Positions 8,350-56,722 of a stretch of DNA of 64,000 nt are shown here, in pieces. The notes beneath the pieces were generated by a model. It made no database searches. It was not told the origin of the DNA and was given only the letters and a program-made list of their open reading frames with translations. Position 1 is the first letter of the stretch. Every line of letters begins with the position of its first letter. A program made the position numbers and the translations under genes. Source of the DNA: a bacterium (GTDB lineage Bacteria; JAMCPX01); assembly GCA_021792615.1 (NCBI GenBank), contig JAJYUJ010000002.1, positions 20,157 to 84,156 on the forward strand, read 5' to 3'.

Positions 8350-8387
8350 TTATGTATACAATATACAATATATTTATTTTGTGTCAA
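8350..8387 (-). promoter_or_regulatory. Sigma70 promoter of sat-aprBA-qmoABC with overlapping operator
   Basis: TTGACA (8387-8382), TATATT 16 bp downstream; palindrome TGTATA-N3-TATACA at 8353-8367 overlaps the -10. Confidence 0.75.
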
Positions 8388-8440
8388 GTAAATTCTTGTT
8401 TTCTGTGTATGAAAACTCGAAAATGGATTCACCCCTTTAT

Positions 8441-10129
8441 TTAACTCAGCCAGGTATATCCGAACATACCACATTCCATGTAGCTTATACGCTGAAAACC
8501 TTTGTTTTTCAACACAGTATATGCCTCATAGGCACGCGTTCCGTACTGGCAGGTACAAATAATCTCTTTGTCCCGGGGTAACTCATTGATACGGGCGCGC
8601 AGATTTTCCAATGGTATGCACATAACTCTTCCATCATCAATACTCTTGCCTTCCGTTATTTCTTCTTTTGTGCGTAAGTCCAGCACTATAAAGTCTTCCG
8701 TGATTTTAAGCCGGTGCCTTACTTCAGCAGGCGGCATGGTTTTGACCGAGCCTGACAGCTTATTGCGCATGATGTTTGCGGTATGGATAATACTGTCCAT
8801 GGCACCTGCAAACGGAGGAGCATAACAGAGATCCATGGATGCAATATCGTCGATCCTAGCTTTAAAATATAATGCCGTAGCAGAAACATCGAGTCTTTTT
8901 GCAATATCTCCGGTCCCGGCAATCTGTGCTCCAAGAAGTCTTCTGTCTGGCACGGATGCTATCAATTTGATAACGATGTTCTTACTGCCGGCAAGGAAAT
9001 GTGAGGTGTCCCTGGTTACAGAAAGGCATGTCTCTGTCCTATATCCGTATTTCTTTGCCTGTTTTTCCGTCAAGCCTGTTTTTCCTGTCTTTAATCCAAG
9101 ACTCATTAAAATGCAGGAGCCAACAACCCCGGGAAAGGTATCTTTTACGCCTGTTATATTGTTCGCTATAACGCGGCCGTGTTTATTCGCTACGGACCCG
9201 AGAGGCATGTGGATCTTTTCCCCGGTAACAATGTCTGTACATTCGACACAGTCGCCACCTGCATAGATACCGGGTATGTTCGTTTGCATACATTCGTCGA
9301 CTGCTATTGCGCCGGTTGCTCCGATCTGTACACCTGCTGATCGTGCAAGCTCTACATCGGGCGTTATGCCGACTGCAAAAATAACGATATCGGCATCAAG
9401 CTCCCTTTTATCGGTTATGACCTTTTTTACCATAGTATTCTCATCACCGGTAATTTCTACGACGGACTCGGACAAGTATAGATTAATCTTCTCGGAACGT
9501 ATTGTATTGGCAGGATAGTGCGACATATCGCTATCGAGCACATCGGGAAGCACCTGTTCTGCCATCTCTATTATCGTTATAGAAAGTCCCTGGGCATTGA
9601 ATGCATCCGCAAGCTCAAGCCCGACCCTGCCGGCTCCAACGATCACGGCATTCTCTATGCCTTCCGATTCTACAGCCTTTCTGATCGCCTCTGCCTGTTC
9701 AAGGCTTCTCAAAACAAAAACATTCTTTAACTGTATGCCCTTAACCGCGGGGACCTTTGCCTTTGCCCCTGATGCAAGGACAAGTTTTGAATAATCTATA
9801 TTTTTGATTTCACCGGATGCGGTGATGATTTTTATAGTCTTGCCCGCCGGGTAGATAGATTGAACAGAAGTTTTTGTATAAACCGTAACATCCTTTGAAT
9901 CCATGAAGTACTTTGCATCTCTTACCGTACCCCACAGCATGCTCATAAGTTCCGACGGCCGCTCGACCGCACCTGCTATATAGTAAGGCATACCGCATCC
10001 TGCATACGATACATAAGGACCTTTTTCTATCATGACAATTTCCGTATCCGCAGAATTTCTTCTTGCCCGTGCTGCCACCTTTGCCCCGCAAGCCCCGCCG
10101 CCGACAATGACGATCCTCTCTTTATTCAT
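8441..10129 (-). CDS. CoA-disulfide / NAD(P)H persulfide reductase fused to a rhodanese domain (CoADR-RHD, Npsr/Nsr-like)
   Basis: GGGACG FAD motif, SYAGCGMPY redox Cys, GAGRVG NAD motif, YAPPF, C-terminal rhodanese CQYGTR. Confidence 0.88.
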   Translation of the reverse strand: MNKERIVIVGGGACGAKVAARARRNSADTEIVMIEKGPYVSYAGCGMPYYIAGAVERPSELMSMLWGTVRDAKYFMDSKDVTVYTKTSVQSIYPAGKTIKIITASGEIKNIDYSKLVLASGAKAKVPAVKGIQLKNVFVLRSLEQAEAIRKAVESEGIENAVIVGAGRVGLELADAFNAQGLSITIIEMAEQVLPDVLDSDMSHYPANTIRSEKINLYLSESVVEITGDENTMVKKVITDKRELDADIVIFAVGITPDVELARSAGVQIGATGAIAVDECMQTNIPGIYAGGDCVECTDIVTGEKIHMPLGSVANKHGRVIANNITGVKDTFPGVVGSCILMSLGLKTGKTGLTEKQAKKYGYRTETCLSVTRDTSHFLAGSKNIVIKLIASVPDRRLLGAQIAGTGDIAKRLDVSATALYFKARIDDIASMDLCYAPPFAGAMDSIIHTANIMRNKLSGSVKTMPPAEVRHRLKITEDFIVLDLRTKEEITEGKSIDDGRVMCIPLENLRARINELPRDKEIICTCQYGTRAYEAYTVLKNKGFQRISYMECGMFGYTWLS

Positions 10130-10157
10130 ACTGCCTCACTTTCTGTACTGCGCCTGC

Positions 10158-10186
10158 AGATTATTGCATACAGTATACATCGTCAA
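10158..10186 (-). promoter_or_regulatory. Promoter of the CoADR-RHD gene with operator in the spacer
   Basis: TTGACG (10186-10181)-17 bp-TAATCT (10163-10158); TGCATA-CAG-TATACA at 10165-10179. Confidence 0.7.
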
Positions 10187-10271
10187 GAAAGAACGAATAA
10201 ATTGGATTGATAAGAAATTGCATTGAGGAACTACAAAGGACGTGGTGTGTAAAAGAATGCGTTCTTTATTT

Positions 10272-10330
10272 TCATTCCCGTATAAACGGGAATACCAAAA
10301 AGACAGAATTCCTGCTTTCGGAGGAATGAC
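10272..10330. repeat. Pair of dRS3/REP-like palindromic units
   Basis: ATTCCC-N8-GGGAAT (10274-10293) and ATTCCT-N8-AGGAAT (10308-10327). Confidence 0.65.
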
Positions 10331-10348
10331 AGAAATCAAACGTGAGCT

Positions 10349-10377
10349 AAAAAAAGGGCGACCCGCCGGGCCGCCCA
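10349..10377 (-). terminator. Rho-independent terminator of the cytochrome gene
   Basis: Minus strand GGGCGGCCC-GGC-GGGTCGCCC followed by T7. Confidence 0.75.
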
Positions 10378-10398
10378 TAATGCTCTGGTTTAGATAAT

Positions 10399-12972
10399 TT
10401 AATACAGTGTTGCGCCCGGTATATTTGAACCGGTCAGATCGTAGAACGCCTTCTGGAGTAATTCAACATCGAACTCCGTATTGTGAATACCCATACTGCC
10501 TTCATTCGCAACAACATTATAATTGTACACAGCATCCAGTTCTTGTTGAGTAAAGGTGTCCGTAAAACTGAATCCTGCAGTACCATTCGAAGGTGATAAG
10601 ACATTGGCGGTCCCTCTTGCTGTAGGTATATTAACCGTCCAAACCACAGGGTTACCGTTTATATCAACCGTATTTGCCGTGCAGGTGCCTGCAGATGTTG
10701 GAGTACTGGTTGTCGTAATAGCACATGCGATCACACTCAAGAGTCCCTGGACGCGGTCCTGCACTCCTTCCTGGCCCTCAATTGCTGTTGAACCGTCCCA
10801 GTCCGGGACAGAGGTTGCAAGTCTTGGCTCAACCCACGTATCAAAGCCGGTCACGATATTCCCATCACCTGTTCCTGTCGGTACCCCGACTATATGGCAC
10901 TGGGCACACGACTCTGTATCATCAACAAGCCCGTCAGACATGGCAAAGCTATGGTTGCCCGTCGTAACTGTAAAGTACGATGGATTGTACATATGACACG
11001 TCACGCACAGGTCTTTACCGTTCGTAGATGACAGGGCGCCTGTCGTATGCGGTGAACTCTGCACCGTAGCAGCATACGCACCCGCACCTACCAGGGTAAA
11101 TCCTTGTCCCGCTGCAAACACCTCGGCTGTTGTGTGATGTATATCAACTGCTGAAGCGGCTGCTGCTGCTGCTGACGTAGAGCCTGCCTGGCTCAAAGCC
11201 AAAGCGTTCTGAATAGCTGAATTGGGGTTTGACGTCTGGTCCGTATGACACATGGTACATATCGCACCCGCGCCAACGTTGGTGAGGGTAAAGCTGCCAC
11301 CTGCAACAGCCTCCGACCCATAAAGTCTGAGTTGATTTGGATTTGCAGCACTGTGCGGGTCATGACACGCAACACAGTTTACCGGGTATGGATTTGTTAC
11401 TATGGTAGGTGGCTGACCTTCAAAGTTTACTGCCACTATCTCTTGAGAAACGTGGCACTGAACACAGCCTAAATTCTTGGTCACAGATCCGCCTGCTGCT
11501 GTCAGGCTCTGTGCATGTACCGATGTCCTCCATTCATTTGGTATATCCTCGTCATCTGTATCATCGTGGCACTGGAAACACACGGACTGATCGTAGCTGA
11601 GTGTACCGGTATGAACGCTGCCCGGGCCATGACAATTTTCACACTGTATATTGCTCATGTTCTTCAGCGACTGCGGCATAGTGTTCCAATTGTTATAGTT
11701 TATTGCATAGCTGTCATTGTTTGCTACAAACGGGAATATCCATCCGGATGCCTCATAAGCACTCCACCACCCGTTACTTGAAACCGTTTGTTCCGGCGTA
11801 TCCCCCAGTGTATGGCAGCCGGCACAATGAAGTGTATAGTTATCATCATCCTGATAGTCGCCGTTAATCATTTTGGTAAACATGGTTGCATGCTTTGTTC
11901 CGAGCCATGGGCCAACCGTCAAAGGTGCATTTGCCACGTTGCCGTTATGGCACTGCGCACACTCCTGCCATCCCACGTAGGTTCCCGCATTCACGGTGAG
12001 TTCCTGACCCGACACAGCCTCGAGGAACACATACTGTCCCGCAATATCCGGTGTAAAACTGGGTGTTTGAGATGCCGGGTTTGTAAGGGCAGTTACATCC
12101 GAGCCGCCGGGTGCGGAAACAACCTGCCAGTTCCAGGTCGATTGTGTGCCCCCGTTTGTACCGCCGTCAAGGTACTGGGTAATACCTATGGGAACATTTT
12201 TTAAACCGCTGGTCATGGACGCAGGGGCTATATAAACTGTCGTCGTCGAGGTATTCGTACCATCGGAAACGGTGAGCTGAAATGCAAAGTCATTGCTATT
12301 GGCATAATTACCGGCCCCAAGCCAGGCCGAGATACCAAGCATACCAAACCTGTCCGGTATCTGGACCGGCACATCGAGTGATGAGAAAAATTGCTGTAAG
12401 GTCGGCAGTTGAACTTGCAATGTCGCGTTACTTGTACCGTTAAGAAATGTCACGGGCGCGGCTATAAATTGCCCTGCATAGTTTGGAACCTGTGTCCATG
12501 AATAGGTTAACGACTTCCCGGACGCGCTTGTACTTGCACTGCCGTCTATAGTAACGACAGCGCCGTATCCCACATCCCATTGATCTTTACCCGCATTGGC
12601 GATGATCGGTACAGACGGCGGAGCAGAAAGCTGGAATGGTATGTTCATGGTCTTACCCGCGACGATAGAAATATACCCCGTAGTTTGTGATATGAAACCG
12701 CCCATTGACGCTGTGATCTGATAGATACCGACCGGTACATTTTGAATTGTAAAATTGCCGTTTGTATCCGTTGTAGCGGAAAACAAGGCAGGTGAGACTG
12801 TTACCAGTGCGCCGGGTAACGGCTTTTTCGTTGCGGTATCAACAACACTTCCGCTTATGGTACCCGAGCTCAACCCTGCGGAGCCTGTCGAACCTTTACA
12901 ACCTGCCATTACAAGACTTACGAAAAGTCCTGCAATAAATAGACATATATATTGTTTAGAAACTATTTTCAT
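10399..12972 (-). CDS. Lipoprotein multiheme (9 CxxCH) cytochrome c with N-terminal carboxypeptidase-regulatory-like and PKD-like domains
   Basis: Lipobox MAGC; ANAGKDQ PKD-like start; CAQCH, CAGCH, CENCH, CFQCH, CVQCH, CVACH, CTMCH, CVTCH, CAQCH; C-terminal YNY..GSMGIHN..LL. Confidence 0.88.
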   Translation of the reverse strand: MKIVSKQYICLFIAGLFVSLVMAGCKGSTGSAGLSSGTISGSVVDTATKKPLPGALVTVSPALFSATTDTNGNFTIQNVPVGIYQITASMGGFISQTTGYISIVAGKTMNIPFQLSAPPSVPIIANAGKDQWDVGYGAVVTIDGSASTSASGKSLTYSWTQVPNYAGQFIAAPVTFLNGTSNATLQVQLPTLQQFFSSLDVPVQIPDRFGMLGISAWLGAGNYANSNDFAFQLTVSDGTNTSTTTVYIAPASMTSGLKNVPIGITQYLDGGTNGGTQSTWNWQVVSAPGGSDVTALTNPASQTPSFTPDIAGQYVFLEAVSGQELTVNAGTYVGWQECAQCHNGNVANAPLTVGPWLGTKHATMFTKMINGDYQDDDNYTLHCAGCHTLGDTPEQTVSSNGWWSAYEASGWIFPFVANNDSYAINYNNWNTMPQSLKNMSNIQCENCHGPGSVHTGTLSYDQSVCFQCHDDTDDEDIPNEWRTSVHAQSLTAAGGSVTKNLGCVQCHVSQEIVAVNFEGQPPTIVTNPYPVNCVACHDPHSAANPNQLRLYGSEAVAGGSFTLTNVGAGAICTMCHTDQTSNPNSAIQNALALSQAGSTSAAAAAASAVDIHHTTAEVFAAGQGFTLVGAGAYAATVQSSPHTTGALSSTNGKDLCVTCHMYNPSYFTVTTGNHSFAMSDGLVDDTESCAQCHIVGVPTGTGDGNIVTGFDTWVEPRLATSVPDWDGSTAIEGQEGVQDRVQGLLSVIACAITTTSTPTSAGTCTANTVDINGNPVVWTVNIPTARGTANVLSPSNGTAGFSFTDTFTQQELDAVYNYNVVANEGSMGIHNTEFDVELLQKAFYDLTGSNIPGATLY

Positions 12973-13154
12973 AGCGTCTCCCTTCTTGTACTATTCTATT
13001 ACTTTTGGGAATATCTTAAATAAAGAACTTATGCAATAAAAATTTTAACAGTGAGTGGCATAAAAACAATTTACGGACAGTCTGCCCAATGGTGTATATG
13101 CAATCGGTTGTTTTTGTTTTGCTTTAACGATGAATATCGGGTATAAAAACAGGG

Positions 13155-13643
13155 ATGAAGAAGATTTACAATACGGTTATTTTAATTGTCGCCACCGGCA
13201 TGTTTATCGGATACCTGCCCTTTGCACCGGGCACATTCGGCAGTATACTGGGTGGGGCACTCTCTTATTTTGTCTCAAAATATCTGGACCCCTATCAGTC
13301 ACTCATGGTACTCGGCGCGCTGCTGGTCATCGGGACCCTCGCTGCGGGTAAGGCGGAAAAGATTCTGAACGAGCAAGACAGCGGGAAAATAGTCATTGAC
13401 GAGATTGCCGGTATGTATATCACTTTGTTGTTTATACCGCCGGGCATTGTACCGCTAATCATCGGGTTCCTCTGTTTCAGGGCCCTTGACATAAGCAAAC
13501 CCTACCCGATTTCATACCTTGATAAGAATGTCCACGGTGGTATCGGTATTATGCTTGATGACGTAGCCGCGGGGATAGCCGCAAATATTCTTGTCCGTAT
13601 ACTCATTTTTTTATTGGAGATACTGATAGGCCGGTCCCTATGA
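13155..13643 (+). CDS. pgpA: Phosphatidylglycerophosphatase A
   Basis: PFAPGTFGS, DSGKIVIDEIAG, FRALDISKPYPI, GGIGIMLDD. Confidence 0.95.
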   Translation: MKKIYNTVILIVATGMFIGYLPFAPGTFGSILGGALSYFVSKYLDPYQSLMVLGALLVIGTLAAGKAEKILNEQDSGKIVIDEIAGMYITLLFIPPGIVPLIIGFLCFRALDISKPYPISYLDKNVHGGIGIMLDDVAAGIAANILVRILIFLLEILIGRSL

Positions 13644-14212
13644 TAAGGGCGTTTATCGCATTACCCGTAGAAGAAGCTGCACGTTCTGCTTTGCGAAAGG
13701 TCATCGATGAGCTGCGCCCCGTGGGCATGGGCGACAGGTATTCGGTGCGATGGGTTGAAAGAGACAATATTCATCTTACGCTCAAGTTCCTCAATTCTAT
13801 CGACGGGCAGCAGATAAAGCGGGTAACCGGGGCGATGGACACACTCAAGGGAATGAAGGCATTTAGGATCGAGTTGCATACCATAGGTGCATTCCCTTCT
13901 CTTGCAAGACCAAGGGTTTTGTGGATAGGTATAGAACAACAAGAACAGGTAAAGGCATTATTTGACAAGTTAGAAGTTTCTATTCATGACCTCAACGGCG
14001 AAGACAGGCCGTTTACCGCACACATAACCATCGGACGGGTCAATGGTACCGTGGACAATCAAGGCCTTGAAAAAATAATTAAGGTGTGGGATGATATTTT
14101 AATAAGTAGTTCTTTTGTTGACAGGGTAGTCCTGTTTCAAAGTATACTTGGTTCCAAAGGCGCTGTTTACCGTTCTTTATATACTGTAGACCTGAACAAG
14201 GAGGCATTATGA
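13640..14212 (+). CDS. thpR: RNA 2',3'-cyclic phosphodiesterase (2H family)
   Basis: RAFIAL start; two HxT motifs HLTLKFL and HITIGR. Confidence 0.92.
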
Positions 14213-15252
14213 CAGTTATTGATACACAGAGTAAAAAGAAGGCCCTCGATATGGCCCTCGCAAACATCGAAAAACAGTTTGGCAAGGGCAGCATCATGAA
14301 GCTTGGCACGACAGGGGCCATCGTTGATACGCCCGTTATACCGACAGGCTCACTCGGCCTGGACATAGCACTTGGCGTCGGCGGCATTCCCAAGGGCAGG
14401 GTCGTTGAAATTTTTGGTCCCGAATCATCCGGTAAAACGACCCTGACACTTCACATCATTGCCGAGGCACAAAAGGCCGGCGGTGTTGCAGCCTTCATCG
14501 ATGCGGAACATGCCCTTGATATCAACTATGCCCGAAAACTCGGTGTTAATATCGACGAACTGCTTGTTTCCCAGCCCGATTCCGGGGAACAGGCACTGGA
14601 GATAACGGACACCCTGGTGCGAAGCGGTGCCATCGACATTGTTGTCATAGATTCCGTTGCGGCACTCGTGCCGAAGTCGGAGCTTGAAGGAGATATGGGG
14701 GATGCGCAAATGGGCGCCCAGGCAAGGCTTATGTCTCAGGCGCTGCGTAAGCTTACGGCGAACATAAGCAAGACCCAGACAATCGTTATTTTTACCAATC
14801 AGATAAGGATGAAGATCGGCGTATTTTTCGGCAACCCTGAAACAACGACGGGAGGCAATGCCTTGAAGTTCTATGCATCCGTCAGGATAGATATCCGCCG
14901 CGTCAACAATATCAAGGAAGGCGACTCTATCATAGGGACAAGGACCAAGGTAAAGATAGTAAAGAATAAGGTAGCACCTCCGTTCCGGGAGAGCGAGTTT
15001 GACATATACTACGGGGAGGGCGTTTCAAAAACCGGCGAGATCATTGACATCGGGACGGAGATAAAGGCAATAGATAAGAGCGGGGCGTGGTATACGTTCA
15101 ACAACGAGCGTATCGGCCAGGGCAGGGACAACACGAGATTGTTCCTGAAAGAACACCCCGAGATTAGCGAAAAAATAGAGGAAAAGATAAAACAGCATTT
15201 CAGTCTTATTAAAAACGACAAGGCACAAAAAAGGGAACAGGAGAAGGCTTAG
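14209..15252 (+). CDS. recA: Recombinase A
   Basis: [41 protein letters not shown]. Confidence 0.99.
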
Positions 15253-16404
15253 ATGGAGTTAAATGACATCCTTAAGGTTGCAACGAAGGCAAACGCATCC
15301 GATATACACTTAAAGGCAGGGCTGCCTCCCATATTCAGAATAAACGGCTCACTGGTGCCGTACAAAGAAGCCCCGCGGCTTACACCCGAGGACCTCGGAA
15401 GGATGACCTTTGGAATCATGACCCCTGTCCAGAGAGAGAAGTTTAAGACCACCTATGAGCTGGATATGGCGTATGGCGTACCCGGACTGGGAAGGTTCAG
15501 GGTAAATATATTTCAGCAGAGGGGAACCATAGGCGCTGTATTCAGGGTTATACCTTTCGGTGTGCCGTCCTTTGATCAGTTGAACCTTCCAAAGGTTATA
15601 GAGAAAATAGCGTTGGAACAAAGAGGGCTTGTGCTGGTCACCGGGACAACAGGCAGCGGAAAATCGACGACCCTTGCCTCGGTGATCGATCATATCAATG
15701 CGAACAGGACATCCCACATCATGACCATAGAGGATCCGATCGAGTATCTGCTGAGGGACAAAAAGAGTATCGTCAATCAGCGGGAACTCGGTGTCGACAC
15801 CCAGAGCTTCGCGACAGCGCTGAGGAGTGCACTGAGGGAAGACCCGGACGTCATTCTCGTCGGAGAAATGAGGGATTTTGAAACGATCGAAACAGCCATA
15901 ACCGCCGCTGAAACGGGACATCTCGTTCTCAGCACCCTGCACACACTCGATGCAAAGGAATCGATAAACAGGGTGGTGTCTATTTTCCCTCCTTATCAGC
16001 AGAAGGCGGTCCGCCTGCAGCTCGCATCGATTCTAAAAGCAGTTATCTCCCAGAGGCTTGTGCCAAAGGCTGATAATAAAGGAAGGGTACCTGCAATCGA
16101 GGTCATGATAGCGACGGCGAGAATACGGGAGCTTATCGCTGACGAGGAAAGGATCGCGGAGATCCACGACACCATAGCAAAGGGATTTACAACCTACGGC
16201 ATGCAGACATTCGATCAATCCCTGCTTCAATTGTTCAGACAAAACCTCATAACGTATGAAGAGGCACTGCGGCAATCGACCAACCCGGACGATTTTGCCC
16301 TGAGGGTCAAAGGCATAACATCGACCTCCGATATGTCATGGGACGACTTCGATAAAAAATCCGCTGCCGGCAAAGACGAAGATTTCAAGATAGAGAAGTT
16401 TTGA
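15253..16404 (+). CDS. pilT: Type IV pilus retraction ATPase PilT family
   Basis: ASDIHL, GTTGSGKST, TIEDPIE, ALREDPDVILVGEMRD, AETGHLVLSTLHT, GMQTFDQ. Confidence 0.93.
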   Translation: MELNDILKVATKANASDIHLKAGLPPIFRINGSLVPYKEAPRLTPEDLGRMTFGIMTPVQREKFKTTYELDMAYGVPGLGRFRVNIFQQRGTIGAVFRVIPFGVPSFDQLNLPKVIEKIALEQRGLVLVTGTTGSGKSTTLASVIDHINANRTSHIMTIEDPIEYLLRDKKSIVNQRELGVDTQSFATALRSALREDPDVILVGEMRDFETIETAITAAETGHLVLSTLHTLDAKESINRVVSIFPPYQQKAVRLQLASILKAVISQRLVPKADNKGRVPAIEVMIATARIRELIADEERIAEIHDTIAKGFTTYGMQTFDQSLLQLFRQNLITYEEALRQSTNPDDFALRVKGITSTSDMSWDDFDKKSAAGKDEDFKIEKF

Positions 16405-16407
16405 TCG

Positions 16408-19282: not shown

Positions 19283-19297
19283 CGAAAGGATGTGTCT

Positions 19298-44869: not shown

Positions 44870-44930
44870 TTAATCAGAAAAATGCGCACAAGGAAGTTTC
44901 CTTATTTTTCAATCGCATTTTTCGGGTTAA
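44870..44930. mobile_element. Minimal MITE-like element, same family as 22068-22375
   Basis: TTAATCAGAAAAATGCG...CGCATTTTTCGGGTTAA; shares ACAAGGAAGTTT.CTTATT and TTTCAA.CGCATTTTTCGGGTTAAG with the 22 kb copy. Confidence 0.65.
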
Positions 44931-45331
44931 GCAACAGCAAGGAGCTTATCGACCGTTTTTATGAGGAAGTCGCTTTTTACCGGTTTTTCAAGATAGGCCT
45001 CCGGTGCCCGAATTGCGACCCCCTTTAAAAATTTCTTGTAGCTGATATCGCTGTTTGTGTTTGTATCAATGCCCGTTATAATGACGATGGGAATGTCATT
45101 CCAGTTTTGCGATCCACGGATTTTTCTGAAAAGCTTTATGCCCGTTTCCCCGGGCAGTATAAGGTCGAGAGTTATGAGATCGGGTTTTTGTTTTACCAAT
45201 GCCCTTATCGCCTGCGCACTGGTACCGGCAATGACAGCGCTATAGCCGGATTCCTCAACCAGATATTTCAGGAAACCGGCGAAATCAAAGTCGTCTTCAA
45301 TTATTAAGATACTTTTTCTTTGTGTTTTCAT
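44927..45331 (-). CDS. Single-domain response regulator
   Basis: ILIIEDD, PDLITLDLILP, YLEKP. Confidence 0.9.
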   Translation of the reverse strand: MKTQRKSILIIEDDFDFAGFLKYLVEESGYSAVIAGTSAQAIRALVKQKPDLITLDLILPGETGIKLFRKIRGSQNWNDIPIVIITGIDTNTNSDISYKKFLKGVAIRAPEAYLEKPVKSDFLIKTVDKLLAVA

Positions 45332-45351
45332 CCGTACAGCCTTATCGCATT

Positions 45352-46599: not shown

Positions 46600-46624
46600 A
46601 CGTAATCCTTCCTTTTGTTATAAT

Positions 46625-47644: not shown

Positions 47645-47671
47645 ATTCTGCCTCCATCATTGCAAAGGTCG

Positions 47672-47791
47672 TTAATACTTTCTTCTCGGGGTACTCACAA
47701 AGTAATAGAACACTATGAATACAAACAGAGTCAGAATAGCTATGAGGTATTCATAACCTATCGGTGTAAACAATTGTTTTAAGATATACAT
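47672..47791 (-). CDS. Small single-TM protein, HmcD-like (39 aa), unannotated in ORF track
   Basis: AGGAG SD; MYILKQLFTPIGYEYLIAILTLFVFIVFYYFVSTPRRKY; fills the hmcA-hmcB gap. Confidence 0.72.
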   Translation of the reverse strand: MYILKQLFTPIGYEYLIAILTLFVFIVFYYFVSTPRRKY

Positions 47792-47801
47792 TTTTGTCTC
47801 C

Positions 47802-49541: not shown

Positions 49542-49556
49542 CGCGCTTCCTCCGAC

Positions 49557-50903
49557 CTACTTCTTGGCCTTCATGCTCTCTGGCACCTCTATTGCATCAA
49601 CAAGTATATCGCTGATAAATTTCGTATGCATGCCAAGCTTGTAATATCCAATTATGTCCTCTATGCCGCTGTGGCAGTTATGGCATGGCGTAATAACGAC
49701 ACGTGCGCCCGTTGCCTTCATTTGTTCCGCCTTGACACGGTTTCCCTCCATGCGTTTGAGCTTCCAGGGGGGACCGCAGTTGATGACACCTCCGCCTGCT
49801 GCACAGCAATAATTGTGCTCTTTGTTTGGCGACATATCCCTGAAATCTTCACAGATCGCATTCACAACATACCGCGCCATGTCACCAAGTCCCCTCCCCC
49901 GCATTACATTGCACGGGTCATGCAGGGTTACGGGCTCTTTGAATTTCTTAACGATCTTTATCCTTCCTTCTTTGATAAGCTCATAATAAAACTGGATCGC
50001 ATGTATGACCGGCACCGGAGGCATCTTCCAGCCGAACCACCGGTTCCCGACATCGTAGACGGATCTGAATGCATGGCCACATTCGCCCATGACGATCCTT
50101 TTGACCTTCAGCCGCATGGCAGCTTCAAAATGCGCCCTCTTTACCCTTCCCATTATCTCCTGATCCCCGGAAAACATGGCCATATCGCTGTTGTCCCAGC
50201 CGTCGAAAGAAGGGAACGTCCAGTCAATACCGGCAACGTTCATGATCTTGGCAGCATTTCCGATAAGCATGGCGAGGAACTTCGGCTCCGGACCGATGAC
50301 AGAATACATGATATCGGCGCCTTCCTTATCCAAAGGAATCGTAAGATTTTTTATCTCTCTTCTGTAATCGTCCTCCTGCCAGAATAAGGTATCGATCCAT
50401 TCGTCCTGCTTGAGCCACATCTGGTTCATGGTAGCAGCGTGACTGTGTGCGGTATCCTGCAGGTATTGGGGTGTTACACCGAGCAGATGGCATATACGCC
50501 GTACGGAACTTATTATGTAGGCAATATCGATTCCAAAGGGACAGTACATACTGCATCTGCGGCACAGGTTGCACTCGGTGTATGCTATTTCTGCAATTTT
50601 TTTGACGGAATCGGGACTTACACGGCCTTTGTTCTTCAGTATCTCCCACATGGTCTGCTTGACCTTACCGACCGGAGAGAAATGCGGATCACCGTCATGC
50701 GACAGATAAAAATGGCACGCCTCCGAGCATAGTCCGCAGTGGATACAGGTCGAGACATAAGCATCCAAACGTGCACCGCCCATAGCAGCCAGTGCATTGT
50801 TTATCGTTATTTCTATTTTTTCCGGGGTCAGTTTTTTTGCACCTTCTTCTAAGCCAAGATCGATTATTTTTTTCACTTCTTTCTTTTCAGCCGCTACTGC
50901 CAT
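49557..50903 (-). CDS. tmcB: TmcB (HmcF/DsrK/HdrD-like CCG Fe-S protein)
   Basis: CIHCGLCSEAC, CNLCRRCSMYC, QDTAHSH..MNQMW, GECGH, LHDPC, CCAAGGG, PCHNC; start ATG 50903 with GGAGGT SD. Confidence 0.85.
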   Translation of the reverse strand: MAVAAEKKEVKKIIDLGLEEGAKKLTPEKIEITINNALAAMGGARLDAYVSTCIHCGLCSEACHFYLSHDGDPHFSPVGKVKQTMWEILKNKGRVSPDSVKKIAEIAYTECNLCRRCSMYCPFGIDIAYIISSVRRICHLLGVTPQYLQDTAHSHAATMNQMWLKQDEWIDTLFWQEDDYRREIKNLTIPLDKEGADIMYSVIGPEPKFLAMLIGNAAKIMNVAGIDWTFPSFDGWDNSDMAMFSGDQEIMGRVKRAHFEAAMRLKVKRIVMGECGHAFRSVYDVGNRWFGWKMPPVPVIHAIQFYYELIKEGRIKIVKKFKEPVTLHDPCNVMRGRGLGDMARYVVNAICEDFRDMSPNKEHNYCCAAGGGVINCGPPWKLKRMEGNRVKAEQMKATGARVVITPCHNCHSGIEDIIGYYKLGMHTKFISDILVDAIEVPESMKAKK

Positions 50904-50947
50904 TCCATACCTCCATCGTGAACTTGATTCGTCGTACCGCGCATGTT

Positions 50948-51622
50948 TTACCAGTCCCTGGCATGACGCACCATGCCAAACTCCGAACCTGTGTAAGCCC
51001 TTGTGAATACGGAGAACAACATGTGTGCCAGCCTGGTAAAGGGGATCGCAATCAACATAAGTTCTCCGCACAGGATATGAAGCACTATTAATGCTTTATA
51101 CGGGAGAAACAGTTGGTGGTACGCTAAAAATCCTGTGAAAAACGGTAAAAATACAATTGCGAGGATAAAAAAGTCTGAAGGATAGGTAACGAACCTGACC
51201 TCTCTTGCAACAAACCTTCTCAGGAGAAAGAACACACAGGAAAGCATTACGATGAGCGTCATAAGGTCGGCAAGCCCCTCCGGCAGGGTCCACAATCTTA
51301 TGTGCCATGATTGAAACAACAGGATGTTATGTGCCAACAAGAATACCGGCGTTATGATGAGACAAAAGTGAAAAAGAAAGGTTACGGTCGTCATGACAGG
51401 GTGTCTTCTCCAATTAACCGTGCCAAAAGGTGTGGCCCAATGGGCAATGGATCTCAGACCGTATTTAAAACTCATGTACGGCAGAACGACTGCTTCCTTT
51501 TTCAGACCGGAGATTATTTTGTATATCCTGTATGTGCTGCCTGATATGAATACCAGAAAAGCGAGCCATACCATCGGACCTCTCACAAACTCATAGAAAC
51601 CTTCGCTCATAAGGAATTTCAT
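50948..51622 (-). CDS. tmcC: TmcC (NarI/DsrM-like cytochrome b)
   Basis: GPMVW, RSIAHW..PF, FH..AH, LHILCGE..IPFTRLAHM. Confidence 0.83.
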   Translation of the reverse strand: MKFLMSEGFYEFVRGPMVWLAFLVFISGSTYRIYKIISGLKKEAVVLPYMSFKYGLRSIAHWATPFGTVNWRRHPVMTTVTFLFHFCLIITPVFLLAHNILLFQSWHIRLWTLPEGLADLMTLIVMLSCVFFLLRRFVAREVRFVTYPSDFFILAIVFLPFFTGFLAYHQLFLPYKALIVLHILCGELMLIAIPFTRLAHMLFSVFTRAYTGSEFGMVRHARDW

Positions 51623-51641
51623 AGCTTTGTATTCTCCATTT

Positions 51642-53039
51642 TTAAATTTCGTCTAAAGGAACAACATACCGGTAATACTTGCCACCCCCTATGCAACGGA
51701 CGAGAATCTTATCTCCACGGGGGCTGAATACCGGGGACCAGAGTGCGTCAAACATTTTTTTACCTGCCTTGCCGTTTACAGCGACACAGTATTTCCCGTT
51801 GATTTCCGCCTTTGCCGCTACCGTACTTCCGTCCGGGCTAAAAACCGGGTCCCATATCATATCGAAATCCTGATTCCACGGGATACCGTCAACAACGATT
51901 GTCCACCGGTCGTTTCCTTCGATGCTGTGAAGTGACGAGCCCATATTCATAGGATCCTTCGATTCCTTTGCTATTGCCGCCACCCGTTTACCGTCCGGAG
52001 AAAATACGGGGTCTAAAACCGTATCGCTGAATGTTTGCTTCCATGCACTGCCGTCAACAGCTATCGTCCACCTGCCGAATTCAGATGCCACTACAGCCGC
52101 TATCTTTTGACCGTCAGAACTGAATTTCGGGGGCCATACCTGAATAAAGGGTCCCCAAATCGGCTTTCCATCGAGGGCGAGTGTCCAGCCCTTGGCGATC
52201 TTAACCGGAGCGATAACATTGTTTTTTGCCGTAAAACAGGGCTCGCACACACACTTATAGGTTTGCGGCCACATGTTCCCGTCTACGACGACTGCGTAGT
52301 CATACAGGTTTATTCTTGTTTCTGCAGCAACGTGCCTGCCGTCGGGACTGAAGGCGAGGCCCCAGACATTGACAAAGTTTTTATCCCACGGGACCCCGTT
52401 CACAGCGACGGTCCAGACACCCTTCTGAAAATTAAATATGTCGGCCTCTGCAAGCCTTTTTACGGCAACCGATGCTGCTGCCTTTGTCCCATCGGAGCTG
52501 ATGAAAAGGTTTCTTACATCGGCAAAGCCCTGTACCCATGGTTTATCCCCCAGACAAACACCGTATTGATCATCTTTCTTTATGTTGATACCAATGGATC
52601 TGCCATTTGGTGCTATCTGTAAATTCCACGCATAGTCGAACTTTTCATTCCAGGGGATCCCGTCGAGAGCAACGGTCCAGGCATTATCTTTGAGTACAAG
52701 ACATGCTGCCTTACCTTCATTGGTGAATTTAAACGACCATATTTTTTCGTACGTTTCTTCCCATGGATTTCCATTTATGCAGACGGTAAAAGTCTCATCA
52801 TCGTTCTGAACCACAGCTCCTATTTTTTCCCCGTCTTCGCTTACGTTGAAGGGACGCACCTCGGCATATCTGCTTTTCCATTCGTCGGTATTGGCGATCA
52901 TCTTTTCTTTCGTATCCCAATCCATTCTGGACTCCGCATCCTTTCCGCGGTCCAGCGGAGTTGCCGTATGTAATGGGGACGGGATACCCTGTTTTGAGAT
53001 CGGTTGGACTTTTTCTTCTGATTTTTGCGTTGCTTCCAT
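51642..53039 (-). CDS. tmcD: TmcD, Trp-rich beta-propeller subunit
   Basis: Repeated FSPDG and WTxxxDG.PW motifs; directly upstream of tmcC/tmcB. Confidence 0.8.
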   Translation of the reverse strand: MEATQKSEEKVQPISKQGIPSPLHTATPLDRGKDAESRMDWDTKEKMIANTDEWKSRYAEVRPFNVSEDGEKIGAVVQNDDETFTVCINGNPWEETYEKIWSFKFTNEGKAACLVLKDNAWTVALDGIPWNEKFDYAWNLQIAPNGRSIGINIKKDDQYGVCLGDKPWVQGFADVRNLFISSDGTKAAASVAVKRLAEADIFNFQKGVWTVAVNGVPWDKNFVNVWGLAFSPDGRHVAAETRINLYDYAVVVDGNMWPQTYKCVCEPCFTAKNNVIAPVKIAKGWTLALDGKPIWGPFIQVWPPKFSSDGQKIAAVVASEFGRWTIAVDGSAWKQTFSDTVLDPVFSPDGKRVAAIAKESKDPMNMGSSLHSIEGNDRWTIVVDGIPWNQDFDMIWDPVFSPDGSTVAAKAEINGKYCVAVNGKAGKKMFDALWSPVFSPRGDKILVRCIGGGKYYRYVVPLDEI

Positions 53040-54179
53040 TTAATGCCTCCTGTAAGGTATAGAGATCGAGAAGACGGTGCCTTTCGGTGAAGATTCAAAT
53101 GTAATCATGCCGCCGTGGCCGGCTATGATCTTTTCCGTTGTAAGCAATCCGAGTCCTGTTCCCCTGTCATTCTTCGTCGTAAAATAACCTTTAAAAATTT
53201 TATCTTTGTTTTTCCGGGAGATCCCGCATCCATTATCTTTTACAGAAACGAGACACCCGATTCCCCTATAATCACTGCTTTTAATCGTAATGCCATGATA
53301 AGACTTTCTTCGCTTATCCATTCTGCAAGCGTCTATTGCATTATCTGCAAGATTTAAAACAGCATGATAAAGACCATTGCTGTTTCCGTGTATCGTCTTT
53401 ATATCTTTACCGAACACTCTGCTGAATTTTATATGCTCCCTGGCCAGTTTTTCTTTTATCGCAACGGCAACGTCCTCTAAAATCCGGTTCATTTCGACAG
53501 GCTCCGGTATTGAAGGCACGTCTTTTGCATAGTCGAGTAAACGGAGAACCGTATCTGACAGTTTTGTTATGTTCCCCTGGATCATGGACCAGCCCTTGCT
53601 AATTTTTTCCTGTTCTCCACGCATAAGCCCGTTGTTGACTAAATATGTTCCTGCATCCATCAGGGAAACGACGTTTTTTATACTATGAGCGATACCGGAT
53701 AGTGTCTGACCGAGGACCGCGAGTTTCTCGGCATGTTTGAGCCTGGTTATGTCGGTAGCTATCTCTATAACGTGCGAAACATGGCTATGATCACCAAATA
53801 CCGGGAATGATTGAACGAGAATATGGCGGGTTTCTCCATTCAGAAGGATTGGCTCTTCGCGCATGTGTGGTTTGCCGTCATGAAAAGACCTCTCGAGGCA
53901 GCAATCATTACATTTTGCATTTCTATGTTTATAGAGTTCATAACAATGCCTGCCTGCTGTTGTGCCGAAATCCTCGATCACCCTTTCATTGGCCTGTATT
54001 ATATAAAAAGCCCTGTCCTGCATTGTTATGTAACACGGGACAGTATTATAAATGGATTTATAAATGTTAAACTGATTTATGAATGATACCATGCTTTCCC
54101 GGTAAGCCTTTGCAGAAGCAACTACTTTTCCAGAATCAAGCGTCGTTCTATCGATAGTTTTCAATGAAGAGGTTCTCAT
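53040..54179 (-). CDS. Cytoplasmic PAS sensor histidine kinase
   Basis: Cys-rich PAS CYELYKHRNAKCNDCC; AHSIKN H-box; NAIDA, DNGCG, GTGLGL; no TM. Confidence 0.9.
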   Translation of the reverse strand: MRTSSLKTIDRTTLDSGKVVASAKAYRESMVSFINQFNIYKSIYNTVPCYITMQDRAFYIIQANERVIEDFGTTAGRHCYELYKHRNAKCNDCCLERSFHDGKPHMREEPILLNGETRHILVQSFPVFGDHSHVSHVIEIATDITRLKHAEKLAVLGQTLSGIAHSIKNVVSLMDAGTYLVNNGLMRGEQEKISKGWSMIQGNITKLSDTVLRLLDYAKDVPSIPEPVEMNRILEDVAVAIKEKLAREHIKFSRVFGKDIKTIHGNSNGLYHAVLNLADNAIDACRMDKRRKSYHGITIKSSDYRGIGCLVSVKDNGCGISRKNKDKIFKGYFTTKNDRGTGLGLLTTEKIIAGHGGMITFESSPKGTVFSISIPYRRH

Positions 54180-54646
54180 ATCGCCTTTGCCCTTAAGCTT
54201 GAAGTACTTCTTTTTTTAGACGCCAGAATTTTGCGGATAACAGAAATAAGCCTTAACGATTCAACCGGTTTTTCAAAATAACCATCAGGTGGCATTAATG
54301 CCTTGGAATATAAAGCCTTTTTAAAATCTATCCCTGGATGGGTGTTATTGGTATAACTGGTTATTATTATTACGGGAATTGAACAATATTTACTGTTTTT
54401 TCGTATTTCCGTAAAAAATTTTATGCCGGTTTTATTCGGCATTATAAGATCAAGGGTTATAAGGTCAGGCACGATGGATTTCATCAGTTGAAAACCAGCC
54501 ATACCGTCGGATGCAAGCACAGTACAGAATCCAGCCTCTTCCAAAATGATTTTCAGGTAGTAAGAGAATTCAGGATCATCCTCTACAATCAGAATTCTTG
54601 GGATTATTCCGCCATGCTCATAGTTATCTGATACTTTTTTTTCCAT
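54176..54646 (-). CDS. Single-domain response regulator (likely start ATG 54646)
   Basis: ILIVEDD, PDLITLDLIMP, YFEKP. Confidence 0.88.
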   Translation of the reverse strand: MEKKVSDNYEHGGIIPRILIVEDDPEFSYYLKIILEEAGFCTVLASDGMAGFQLMKSIVPDLITLDLIMPNKTGIKFFTEIRKNSKYCSIPVIIITSYTNNTHPGIDFKKALYSKALMPPDGYFEKPVESLRLISVIRKILASKKRSTSSLRAKAI

Positions 54647-54657
54647 AAATCTCTTCG

Positions 54658-54774
54658 CTGGTCTGACCAATAATACAGAGCCATAAATATTCTATATAAC
54701 TGGTCTGACCAGTGATAAAATTATATGGTTCCTGATTCGGTGTCAAGTTATTTTGTGTACAATGTACAATATAC
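54658..54774 (-). promoter_or_regulatory. Promoter of the tmc/hmc cluster with two operator types
   Basis: TTGACA 54746-54741 with TAATTT/TATAAT -10 near 54718-54725; TGGTCTGACCA at 54659-54669 and 54701-54711; TGTGTA-CAA-TGTACA at 54754-54768. Confidence 0.75.
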
Positions 54775-54985
54775 CAATGAGGGCATTATCAAAAATGCAT
54801 AGGGCTGGTACCATCCCTATCCCGGTTTTCGTAAAATACTACCTTCGACAAGCCCCCCCTGCTGAGGTGACATCATTTCTGTGCGGTGAACTGATTCTCC
54901 ATGAGAGGGGGTGAGGGGGAAAATTGTAACAGGTATTGCTTTTTTATAAAAATTCTTATAGAGTGAAAGCTACTGGAGGATACAG

Positions 54986-55990
54986 ATGAAAATTAAGAAT
55001 GTATTATCCCTTATTGCTTTTTTGATTTTTGGTTTAACGGTTTCGAACGGGTGTACTCCTGTCAAACAAACAACTACAGACGCGCCTTCCCTGCACTTTG
55101 ATCAAGTAAGTTATAATTTTGGAAAAATCCCTAAGGGAAAAAAAGTTTCACATAATTTTACGTTTACCAATACCGGTAATGAGAAGCTTGTCATAACCAA
55201 GGTACAACCAACCTGCGGGTGTACGGTGGCGGTTACCTCATCAAAGGAATTGTTGCCGGGAGCAAAGGGCGTAATCAAGATTACATTCGATTCTCAGGGC
55301 TACCTTGGACCTATTACCAAGACCATTACGGTTATGGATAACGACCCTGCAAAACCATCGGTATTGCTGTCTATCAGCGGCGACGTAGTCACAGACGTTA
55401 TGCTCTCTAAACCAGCCCTGTTTTTCGGCTCTATTAAGAAGGGGCAGGGAGCACAGCAATCTGTAGATATTTTCATCTCCAATCCTTCTGTGCACATAAT
55501 GTCCGTCGTCTCGACAAATCCTTATATAAAAGTATCAACCGTCAGCCAGTTTATGTCCCAGGAAACTATCAATGTGTCCGTTCTTCCGGATGCCGGGTAT
55601 GGTCCGCTCAACGCCGATATTCTTATTCTTTCTTCGAGCAAAGAACAACCTGCGCTCCACATACCGGTTATAGGTAACATTGTCGGCGATATTCTTCTGA
55701 ACCCCGATGTGGTAGATTTTGGCGTTGTTAAGGCACACGCCGAACAAAGTATACTGCCTGTTTACCTTTATACTCAGCCGCCGCGCGAATTCTCTTTAAC
55801 AAAGGTAACGGTAAAACCCGATATTGTCCATGTAAAGGTCATGAAACAAAACCAGGGAAGCTATAAGTTAGAATTGCTGTTAAAACCGGTAAAAAGTATG
55901 GGTGGTATTCATGGCACCATAACCGTCCTGACAACAATGAAAAAAATGCCTGTTGTCGTTATTCCGTTTCAAGGAACTATCGAGCCCTAA
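54986..55990 (+). CDS. DUF1573 Ig-like domain lipoprotein
   Basis: Signal ending NGC; YNFGKI..FTFTNTG..L.I..V.PTCGCT. Confidence 0.85.
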   Translation: MKIKNVLSLIAFLIFGLTVSNGCTPVKQTTTDAPSLHFDQVSYNFGKIPKGKKVSHNFTFTNTGNEKLVITKVQPTCGCTVAVTSSKELLPGAKGVIKITFDSQGYLGPITKTITVMDNDPAKPSVLLSISGDVVTDVMLSKPALFFGSIKKGQGAQQSVDIFISNPSVHIMSVVSTNPYIKVSTVSQFMSQETINVSVLPDAGYGPLNADILILSSSKEQPALHIPVIGNIVGDILLNPDVVDFGVVKAHAEQSILPVYLYTQPPREFSLTKVTVKPDIVHVKVMKQNQGSYKLELLLKPVKSMGGIHGTITVLTTMKKMPVVVIPFQGTIEP

Positions 55991-56009
55991 CCCATGACAA
56001 AAAAAACAG

Positions 56010-56041
56010 TTGACTTGTTGAAATGTATATTGTATACATAA
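56010..56041 (+). promoter_or_regulatory. gntR promoter with putative autoregulatory operator
   Basis: TTGACT-17 bp-TATACA; TGTATA-TTG-TATACA at 56024-56038. Confidence 0.7.
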
Positions 56042-56047
56042 AACATT

Positions 56048-56722
56048 ATGGGACTAAGACAAATTGATCTTCAAAAGAAACAAACGCTAAGGGAACAAAT
56101 AGCGGATGCCATACGGGACGCTATCATAAAGGGTATTCTCCAGCCCGAAGAACGTGTGGCAGAAGCAGAAATGGCCAACAAGTTCAACATCAGCAGGACG
56201 CCTATCAGAGAGGCAATACGGCAGCTTGAGACAGAAGGGTTCATAAAGGTACAGGCTCACCGGGGTGCTTATGTCGCTCCGATCACAGAAAAGGACATAC
56301 GGGATTTTTACGAGATCAAAAGCATCCTTGAAGGATATGCCGCAAAGCTTGCGTGCAGCAGGATGAACGAAGACGACATAAAAAAAATGGAAGAACTCAA
56401 CAACAAGCTCGAAGATGCGCATAAAAAAGGTGAATGGCGGCTCGCGTTCAAGCTGCACAATGATTTCCACGATAAATTCCTGCGCAACTGCGGCAACGAG
56501 AAACTGTATCAATTGCTCCAGTCGCTGACCCAGCAATTCCAGAGATTCAGAATAGCCCTGACGATGAGCGGCAAGATTGAAGGTTCTATAAGCCAGCACC
56601 GGGAGATAGTAAATGCATTCCGCAAACGCAATGCAGACCTTGTAGAAAAGCTCGTCAAAGAGAACGCAACCTATGGGAGTGAAACACTTGTCTCAGAAAT
56701 TCTGAGACATGGACAGGTGTAG
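56048..56722 (+). CDS. GntR-family (FadR subfamily, FCD domain) transcriptional regulator
   Basis: wHTH ISRTPIREAIRQL; FCD motifs NDFH, GN..L, QHREI. Confidence 0.93.
   Translation: MGLRQIDLQKKQTLREQIADAIRDAIIKGILQPEERVAEAEMANKFNISRTPIREAIRQLETEGFIKVQAHRGAYVAPITEKDIRDFYEIKSILEGYAAKLACSRMNEDDIKKMEELNNKLEDAHKKGEWRLAFKLHNDFHDKFLRNCGNEKLYQLLQSLTQQFQRFRIALTMSGKIEGSISQHREIVNAFRKRNADLVEKLVKENATYGSETLVSEILRHGQV

Follow-up and report, generated by a model that had tools for sequence, protein, structure and literature searches.

Which regulator reads a short operator-like sequence that recurs ahead of sulfate-activation genes in an uncultured bacterium, and how much of the cell's metabolism lies behind it? 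The question is raised by a 64,000-nucleotide (nt) stretch of DNA (the window; C67:20157-84156 of the source genome G000, 2.54 Mb in 77 contigs), in which one 15-mer, here called the box, stands in four promoters: that of the ATP sulfurylase gene sat with aprBA and qmoAB behind it, that of a gene for a CoA-disulfide-reductase-like protein with a rhodanese domain (cdr), that of a tmc/hmc-type cluster (tmc) and that of a gene for a GntR-family regulator (gntR). A first-pass annotation had proposed a hitherto undescribed GntR/FadR regulon dedicated to dissimilatory sulfur respiration. From the sequence comparisons set out below, the box is probably the operator of the FCD-type GntR protein encoded at 56048-56722, an autoregulated repressor, a reading held with reasonable confidence. 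The core of the regulon appears to be the tricarboxylic acid (TCA) cycle together with the respiratory chain, and in the family of G000 the whole dissimilatory sulfur pathway seems to stand under the same box.

The four copies in the window, each adjoining a TTGACN hexamer that resembles a -35 element, are as follows.

8353-8367, minus strand: box TGTATATTGTATACA in the sat promoter, overlapping the -10 TATATT at 8360-8365

10165-10179, minus strand: box TGTATACTGTATGCA in the spacer of the cdr promoter, 1 nt past the -35 TTGACG at 10181-10186

54754-54768, minus strand: box TGTACATTGTACACA in the tmc promoter, 7 nt upstream of the -35 TTGACA at 54741-54746

56024-56038, plus strand: box TGTATATTGTATACA ahead of gntR, 9 nt before the ATG and 8 nt beyond the -35 TTGACT at 56010-56015

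The first-pass annotation had these sequences, coordinates and strands right, as well as the neighbouring -35 hexamers and the geometry (overlap with the -10 or spacer at sat, cdr and gntR, a position 7 bp upstream of the -35 at tmc). The pattern TGTAYAYTGTAYRCA gives these four matches in the window and none in any of 100 dinucleotide-preserving shuffles of it. The 18-bp identity claimed between the sat and gntR promoters is likewise real, TGTATATTGTATACATAA occurring at 8350-8367 on the minus strand and at 56024-56041 on the plus strand. At sat, the -35 TTGACA (8382-8387) lies 14 nt upstream of the box, and a consensus promoter scan recovered TTGACA-16-TATATT there with 11 of 12 positions matching and the -10 within the box; the same scan, which applies a stricter -10 rule, called no promoter at cdr, tmc or gntR. 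The candidate -10 at tmc, TAATTT at 54718-54723, is weak (3 of 6 positions by our reading), and a terminator-like hairpin at 10356-10376 sets cdr apart from the gene upstream.

In Desulfovibrio, sat is under the control of Rex, and a repressor site over the sat promoter there ties sulfate activation to cellular state. The system described here differs in motif and in protein family: as the first-pass annotation had noted, a Rex-type box (TTGTGAA-N4-TTCACAA) is absent from the sat, cdr, tmc and gntR promoters, with no match within three mismatches. A scan of the window against Rfam returned no RNA family.

The consensus of the box is T-GTATAY-T-GTATAC-A. Its two self-complementary GTATAC hexamers are spaced by one base, so that the 15-mer reads as both a direct and an inverted repeat; it can be taken as a palindrome with a 3-nt centre, as a 7-bp direct repeat, or as the palindrome TGTATACA with a leftward extension. 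Across 15 sites in G000, positions G2, A4, T8, G9, T10, C14 and A15 are invariant, variation falls mostly on positions 1, 3 and 7, and positions 8-15 spell TGTATACA in 11 of the 15.

Beyond the window, the strict pattern TGTAYAYTGTAYRCA has eight matches in the 2.54 Mb genome, all of them upstream of start codons and beside TTGAC(A/G/T). When up to two mismatches are allowed, G000 yields 28 strand-hits against one for a reversed control pattern, well clear of the background frequency that the first-pass annotation had named as the outcome that would undo its proposal. That annotation had also predicted a copy at dsrAB, and a strict match is indeed found there. The sites outside the window are listed below.

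C45:117949: strict box upstream of dsrA

C22:47957: strict box upstream of the citrate synthase gene (gltA)

C21:37313: strict box upstream of a major facilitator (MFS) transporter gene

C8:10278: strict box upstream of nuoA

C71:43925: box with 1-2 mismatches upstream of the aconitase-isocitrate dehydrogenase-malate dehydrogenase-fumarase genes (acn-icd-mdh-fum)

C45:153717: box with 1-2 mismatches upstream of tauE-DUF1634

C1:2206: box with 1-2 mismatches upstream of a phosphoenolpyruvate (PEP)-synthase-like gene (ppsA)

C32:45925: box with 1-2 mismatches upstream of a gene for a multihaem cytochrome c fused to cytochrome b561

C71:21672: box with 1-2 mismatches upstream of another multihaem cytochrome gene

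C7:72970: box with 1-2 mismatches 160 nt upstream of an H+-pyrophosphatase gene

The crude open reading frame (ORF) caller used here extends each ORF to its first upstream start and tagged the dsrA, tauE, ppsA and cdr boxes as coding; on inspection, these boxes precede start codons that have ribosome-binding sites. In 12 promoters of G000 the box lies downstream of the -35 by 1 to ~37 nt, in the spacer, over the -10 or after it. In two others, tmc and the PEP-synthase gene on contig C1, it lies exactly 7 nt upstream of a perfect TTGACA; the candidate -10 of the latter, TAAGGT, is again weak (3 of 6 by our reading). Between the box promoter and the PEP-synthase-like gene there is also a short ORF, MILAAFYR (locus L009, 2297-2323), with a ribosome-binding site, which may encode a leader peptide.

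These positions bear on one alternative, that the 15-mer is a promoter element such as an extended -10, or a chance repeat in AT-rich DNA, and is not a regulator site. In the sat, dsrA and gltA promoters the -10 TATATT, spaced by a constant 14-15 nt from the -35, is indeed provided by the left half of the box. A promoter element would not, however, be expected to shift between 7 nt upstream of the -35 and 1 to ~37 nt downstream of it, and in Geobacter its counterpart, located at +11 to +23, has a negative effect (PMC2817479). Against chance stand the empty shuffles and the reversed-pattern controls, which are near zero. We regard this explanation as hardly credible.

Conservation among relatives supports a regulatory role. 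The family comprises G000 and 11 relatives; the next genome is labelled 'same class' and those thereafter only 'same domain'. All 12 family genomes carry between 4 and 20 box strand-hits at up to one mismatch (controls 0-1), as against 0-2 in 29 genomes outside the family. Ten of the 11 relatives encode the GntR protein with 79-98% identity; in G011, whose assembly is 84% complete, it was not found. The first-pass annotation had asked for conservation of the motif in relatives, and the box precedes gntR at every orthologous locus with upstream sequence: it lies 8-10 nt ahead of the start codon in G000 and in nine relatives, and is also present at the split gntR copy of G006 (G006:C88). A second GntR copy in that genome (L031, G006:C121), 69% identical, has a box of its own, TGCATAATGCATACA, at 1479-1493, in which both hexamers carry the same T-to-C change and have thus co-varied; TGCATAATGCATACA was found only in the promoter of this paralogue, with no other copy in five family genomes.

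The target promoters have been kept as well. Exact boxes precede gltA in all five relatives examined, and a box precedes dsrA in each of the four genomes that have the gene (G002, G006, G007 and G008). The sat copy is retained with identical box and spacing in G002 and G008 and as a box in G007; the cdr orthologue of G007 shows TTGACT followed directly by TGCATATTGTATGCA. Even the unusual box-N7-TTGACA arrangement persists, at tmc in G002 and G005 and at the PEP-synthase gene in G007 and G008. Among 20 loci from G007-G010 that were extracted around box sites, 14 are orthologous to box-bearing operons of G000 (four acn, three nuoA, two ppsA and one each of tauE, dsrA, gltA, sat and the cytochrome c-b gene); the other six comprise three inside long ORFs and three at other promoters. 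A separate observation concerns two of these relatives, where an exact TGTATACTGTATACA box stands before an ORF of 103-125 amino acids (aa) without a homologue in G000 (L115, G008:C2:30100-34200; L120, G007:C8:2100-6200) and the next genes are 34-38% identical to G000 C67:18291-19789; this locus looks like a regulon member absent from G000.

How far, then, is the regulon a sulfur regulon? The gene identities in the window assigned by the first-pass annotation hold against Pfam and NCBIfam models, and the genes behind the first two boxes are these.

7089-8324, minus strand: sat, ATP sulfurylase (Pfam)

6618-7061, minus strand: aprB (Pfam)

4721-6607, minus strand: aprA, product AprA-like (Pfam)

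3343-4605, minus strand: qmoA, product QmoA-like (Pfam)

1167-3311, minus strand: qmoB, product QmoB-like (Pfam)

8441-10129, minus strand: cdr, a CoA-disulfide-reductase-like flavoprotein with a C-terminal rhodanese domain (Pfam)

The sat-aprBA-qmoAB run (1167-8324, minus strand) has short intergenic gaps, and a further ORF, putatively qmoC according to the first-pass annotation, lies downstream at 2-1156. The cdr product scores 389 bits against the NCBIfam CoA-disulfide reductase model, under its cut-off of 579. Behind the third box lies the tmc cluster, and behind the fourth the regulator gene itself.

44927-54670, minus strand: tmc cluster as a whole, with HmcF/A/B/C-like proteins (Pfam, NCBIfam)

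54176-54670, minus strand: receiver protein, first gene of the cluster (Pfam)

53040-54179, minus strand: PAS histidine kinase (Pfam)

51642-53039, minus strand: TmcD (NCBIfam equivalog, 510 bits against a cut-off of 440)

50948-51622, minus strand: 224-aa ORF without a family match

49557-51071, minus strand: CCG/Fe-S protein (Pfam)

47802-49541, minus strand: multihaem cytochrome c (Pfam)

46625-47644, minus strand: 4Fe-4S protein (Pfam)

45352-46599, minus strand: NrfD-type membrane protein (Pfam)

44927-45331, minus strand: second receiver protein (Pfam)

56048-56722, plus strand: gntR, a GntR-family regulator with an FCD effector domain, 224 aa (Pfam)

In the dsr cluster of G000, dsrAB is followed by an 88-aa ORF and by genes for a DsrL-like flavoprotein, a DsrN-like amidase, DsrC and a DsrM-like protein. 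Between dsrAB and dsrC/dsrM, at 10625-15974 of locus L001 (G000:C45:110000-126000), the DsrL-like protein is of the GltD type and is accompanied by the DsrN-like amidase. DsrL is better known from sulfur oxidisers, so the sulfur pathway of G000 might run in either direction. Divergent from dsrA (~5367-7815 of the same locus) lie a ROK-family gene and then two FCD-type GntR genes, and a weaker box, AATATATTGTATACA, abuts the start codon of the ROK gene.

A GntR regulon dedicated to dissimilatory sulfur respiration, joining sulfate activation, persulfide reduction and a membrane electron conduit as first proposed, would account for the boxes at sat-apr-qmo, cdr, tmc, tauE and dsrAB, the last with dsrC and dsrMK in the same cluster. 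It would not account for the boxes that head gltA, acn-icd-mdh-fum, nuoA, ppsA, the MFS gene and the cytochrome genes. Two relatives speak to the same point: the search for dsrA found nothing in G009 and G010 (95% and 92% complete, respectively), and sat is present in both with no box within three mismatches in ~1.5 kb of its flanks, yet the box is retained in both genomes at gntR, gltA and the aconitase operon and stands upstream of nuoA as well. This pattern identifies the TCA cycle, complex I and the regulator itself as the conserved core. Boxes in more distant genomes, described below, precede genes for malate dehydrogenase, fumarase, a subunit of oxaloacetate decarboxylase or pyruvate carboxylase and H+-pyrophosphatase, and the targets named in the available part of the Geobacter report include no sulfur genes (PMC2817479). 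We therefore give a regulon limited to sulfur respiration only a slim chance. What stands of the original interpretation is a conserved operator-like element at the sulfur genes; its restriction to those genes does not. Judged from this comparison, the sulfur genes are a lineage-specific addition to a core TCA-cycle and respiration regulon. As a side observation, the genera of G009 and G010 (L040, L041) may have lost the sulfur pathway or may never have gained it.

The notion that no such system had been described also has to be given up, since the same box with largely overlapping targets has been published in Geobacter, where it was assigned to the regulator HgtR (PMC2817479). There, the repressor protects +11 to +23 of gltA in G. 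sulfurreducens, the site used for the genome search is TTGTATACAGTATACTAA, and deletion of the box doubled gltA-lacZ activity, marking it as a negative element (PMC2817479). Similar sites were noted ahead of acnB, icd, oorD, ato, frdC, atpG, nad and nuoA, and also of sfrB, iolE, fumA and a gntR gene (PMC2817479). Purified GSU3364 (HgtR, 62 aa, a predicted ribbon-helix-helix protein) footprinted gltA, atpG, nuoA and gntR, and Ueki and Lovley (2010) accordingly assigned the box to HgtR, describing gntR as a target (PMC2817479). The GntR-family protein GSU3370, likewise purified, bound to the gltA promoter as well, giving a 'different binding pattern', and no role was assigned to it (PMC2817479); a 2023 paper states that little is known about GSU3370 (PMC10599522).

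The likeness to G000 is close. The box is near-identical (TTGTATACAGTATACTAA there, TGTATA(T/C)TGTATACA here) and in Geobacter it exerts its negative effect from a position at the promoter or beyond it (PMC2817479); gltA, aconitase, icd-mdh, fumarase, nuoA and the gntR gene are shared targets, with TTGTATACAGTATAC found at gltA, aconitase, icd-mdh, nuoA and gntR in G000. In contrast to the Geobacter regulon, G000 adds dsr, sat-apr-qmo, cdr, tmc and tauE, has two promoters with the box upstream of the -35, and shows no recognizable 62-aa HgtR, nor do five relatives.

Several observations connect GSU3370 with the window protein. Geobacter GntR proteins ~50% identical to the window GntR start MKK.(I/L)EKH, contain ETIRDAI and end LH(M/L)D(I/L), with AALHMDI in two. 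The hand-translated cloning primers for GSU3370, which correspond to the two ends of those proteins, and the primer-extension primer for 'gntR' match them, and when related genomes are searched both sets land on the orthologous gene with 2-5 mismatches. We infer that the 'gntR' target is GSU3370 and that GSU3370 is the orthologue of the window protein, given primer matches in related genomes and not in the G. sulfurreducens sequence itself. The GSU3370-like genes, like the window gntR, have the box in their promoters: 9 of the 10 orthologue loci closest (66-77%) to a Geobacter GntR read TTGACA, 4-6 nt, box and then the gene.

The association of box and gene extends further. GntR homologues that share 35-56% identity are present in genomes whose titles name Deltaproteobacteria, Thermodesulfobacteriota, Desulfuromonadales and other groups, and at least 12 of 20 such distant orthologues have a box-like sequence within 160 nt before the gene. 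Out of five of these distant genomes, two are clearly enriched in boxes (G041, 26 strand-hits against 7 in the control; G044, 29 against 2), and G045 shows no enrichment. Behind the distant boxes lie homologues of malate dehydrogenase, fumarase, an oxaloacetate-decarboxylase/pyruvate-carboxylase subunit and an aconitase-family protein, together with homologues of H+-pyrophosphatase, an NfnAB-like pair and ribonucleotide reductase. The neighbours of the distant gntR genes (a second FCD GntR in tandem, peptidase U32, MTHFR, DUF1015, SelA and FapA) offered no clue to the effector.

The serious competitor is that the box is real and bound by another factor, for instance an undetected small ribbon-helix-helix protein like HgtR, with gntR merely one of its targets. 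A tandem-repeat reading of the box would suit such a protein, and in the available part of the Geobacter report HgtR alone has a footprint on the box, GSU3370 having none (PMC2817479). We searched for HgtR with a profile hidden Markov model built from six homologues recovered through a published primer. Applied to 401 genomes of the phylum around G043, the profile found strong matches (E<=1e-30) in 7 genomes and weak ones in 8 more, which serves as a positive control, and in one genome (G148) hgtR lies ~6 kb from gntR. It did not detect HgtR in a six-frame translation of G000 (best E 1.3) or in any of the five family relatives searched (92-100% complete). The box in the gntR promoter and the invariant helix-turn-helix (HTH) residues of the protein persist across lineages labelled as several phyla, where HgtR was not found; no other gene for a DNA-binding regulator was found behind a box in G000, and the receiver proteins of the tmc cluster lack a DNA-binding domain according to Pfam. 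These genome comparisons suggest that HgtR is not the general partner of the box.

In the same 401 genomes, a GntR orthologue (E<=1e-60 to a Geobacter protein) is present in 51, and TGTATACNGTATACA, at up to one mismatch, occurs at least three times in 41 of these 51 as against 27 of the 350 without the orthologue, a tally whose thresholds were chosen after seeing the data and whose genomes are interrelated. This caveat counts against assigning the box to GntR, and so do several other points. G128 has 25 boxes with a sole homologue that is 31% identical and carries no box, and G329, in which one of 10 boxes precedes an orthologue of gltA, has no GntR homologue at E<=1e-25; G128 is also the only one with dsrA among the box-rich genomes examined outside the family, and it has no box within 260 nt of dsrA or sat. 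G011 has boxes but no GntR match in its 84% complete assembly. Small ribbon-helix-helix proteins diverge fast, so an HgtR analogue could have evaded the search, and the published footprint belongs to HgtR. As side observations, no HgtR was found in box-rich G128 and G329 either (L169-L180), a 34%-identical GntR homologue in G187 does carry the box, and the sat-like gene of G075 has none. Weighing both sides, we consider a different binding factor unlikely and retain the GntR protein as the probable reader of the box.

The window protein has a PF00392 winged HTH domain (residues 15-76, 64 bits against a cut-off of 27) and a PF07729 FCD effector domain (residues 86-205, 89.1 bits against 24.3). 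No NCBIfam equivalog among PdhR, LldR, GlcC, CsiR, NanR and phnR_burk scores above its cut-off, the best being phnR_burk with 130 bits against 271.5. Across 22 orthologues (43-92% identity), none of the HTH residues E39, S49, R50, T51, P52, R54, E55 and R58 varies, nor does K91 or N206, and H141 and H184 are nearly invariant. The protein is of the FCD type, its closest solved relatives appear to belong to the VanR-like group, and the earlier label of FadR type has to be amended, as it is probably not FadR proper.

PdhR of Escherichia coli is an autoregulated FCD-type GntR repressor that links pyruvate to respiratory-chain genes and recognizes an operator of the TGGT-N3-ACCA type. The window GntR differs in not being a PdhR member (57 bits against a cut-off of 330). 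A second, distinct palindrome of the same TGGT-N3-ACCA (FadR) type, separate from the 15-mer box, occurs downstream of the tmc -10: TGGTCTGACCA stands there in two exact copies, at 54659-54669 and 54701-54711, 42 bp apart. This pair holds the only exact copies in the genome outside called ORFs, one more lying inside an ORF, and one copy at tmc is kept in G005. It may be the operator for one of the two other FCD GntR genes near dsrA (C45:115366-116798, LldR/PdhR-like).

Three further structure matches are probably the VanR-group proteins PS5454 and TM0439, both named in PMC7797058. The closest solved sequence is PmiR (PDB 7xp0, E 1e-23), which aligns over residues 12-208 with few gaps. VanR-like regulators differ from the FadR group in having six effector-domain helices where the latter has seven; PmiR has helices alpha4-alpha9, and in the Pseudomonas aeruginosa protein (7xp0/7xp1) its FCD pocket holds Zn2+ and the tricarboxylate 2-methylisocitrate (PMC9728974). 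The Zn ligands D143/H147/H192/H214 of PmiR align with H137/H141/H184/N206 of the window GntR, which gives three His and an Asn in a permuted arrangement, metal-dependent FCD regulators using three His with an Asp or Asn to hold a divalent metal, and the ligand-binding residues R95 and R184 correspond to the basic K91 and K176. PmiR differs in recognizing GC-rich sites and at two metal positions, the fourth ligand H214 being N206 here and D143 being H137.

A parallel in DNA recognition, which speaks for the GntR assignment, comes from Atu1419 of Agrobacterium fabrum, a VanR-group FCD protein crystallized with the palindrome ATGTATACAT, in which Glu34, Arg45, Thr46 and Arg49 make the contacts (PMC7797058). 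These residues have the same spacing as E39, R50, T51 and R54 of the window GntR, and the core of ATGTATACAT is the TGTATACA found in the box. The Atu1419 operator also overlaps the -10 or spacer, and the protein has a metal site in its FCD domain (PMC7797058). Unlike the window protein, Atu1419, which is distant in sequence (E 6e-10), is a local regulator of a hydroxycinnamate cluster, and it is tetrameric with two separated palindromes, whereas the box in G000 is one 15-mer of two overlapping half-palindromes.

From these elements a model can be proposed in which binding, the sign of regulation and the effector are predictions, set beside the observed anatomy, conservation and co-occurrence of the box. 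A GntR dimer, or a dimer of dimers, would bind the box and block RNA polymerase wherever the box lies in the spacer, over the -10 or just after it, or at the start site. The predicted repressed set comprises at least 12 promoters of G000, among them those of sat-apr-qmo, cdr, gntR, dsrAB, gltA, acn-icd-mdh-fum and nuoA, as well as those of tauE, the MFS gene, two cytochrome genes and probably the H+-pyrophosphatase gene; the box at gntR itself would provide negative autoregulation. At tmc and the PEP-synthase gene, where the box lies 7 nt upstream of a perfect -35 and the -10 is weak, activation from about -50 is possible, an idea that draws on these two promoters. A small anionic ligand at the putative metal site of the FCD domain, which we would guess to be a carboxylate of central metabolism, would release GntR from the DNA, so that when this signal is present the TCA cycle, complex I and the sulfate-reduction pathway would be induced together.

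An autoregulated GntR/FCD repressor with a TGTATACA-type operator thus belongs to a known type, and the box with its core regulon is on record in Geobacter under HgtR. In the literature searched, mostly by titles and the opening lines of abstracts, we found neither the extension to dsrAB, sat-apr-qmo and tmc nor a comparative case for GntR, as opposed to HgtR, as the general partner of the box, and none of those titles or opening lines credits a GntR protein with it. More tentatively, as a possibility that we would not yet favour, the findings can be joined into one account in which the GSU3370-type GntR is a master regulator of long standing that governs the TCA cycle and the respiratory chain across lineages labelled as several phyla. 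The 'HgtR box' would originally be its operator and HgtR a later addition in Geobacter and close relatives; the regulon would have captured dsrAB-dsrC-dsrMK, sat-aprBA-qmo, tmc, cdr and tauE; and the protein would repress where the box lies on the -10 or +1 and activate at tmc and PEP synthase, where it lies 7 nt upstream of the -35, in response to a central-carbon carboxylate.

Some features adjoining gntR may be recorded here. An HNH-domain ORF at 56709-57326 shares 14 nt with the end of gntR, and within it the HNH part is similar to the HNH of IscB/Cas9, with scores below the cut-offs. An ORF of ~200 aa stands at the same position after gntR in the loci of three relatives (L050, L053 and L054).

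If the wider account of an old master regulator that captured the sulfur pathway is true, this protein would be the first for which direct control of dsrAB is predicted beyond the Desulfovibrio models. The comparative data suggest that the 'HgtR box' of Geobacter belongs first to GSU3370, and the box offers a handy marker for predicting energy-metabolism regulons in metagenome-assembled genomes. In G000, dsr, sat-apr-qmo and tmc share one short operator with the TCA cycle and complex I, which yields a concrete model, open to experiment, for the coupling of carbon oxidation with the terminal sulfur pathway in an organism not yet cultured; a large part of the energy metabolism of this bacterium may depend on one switch.

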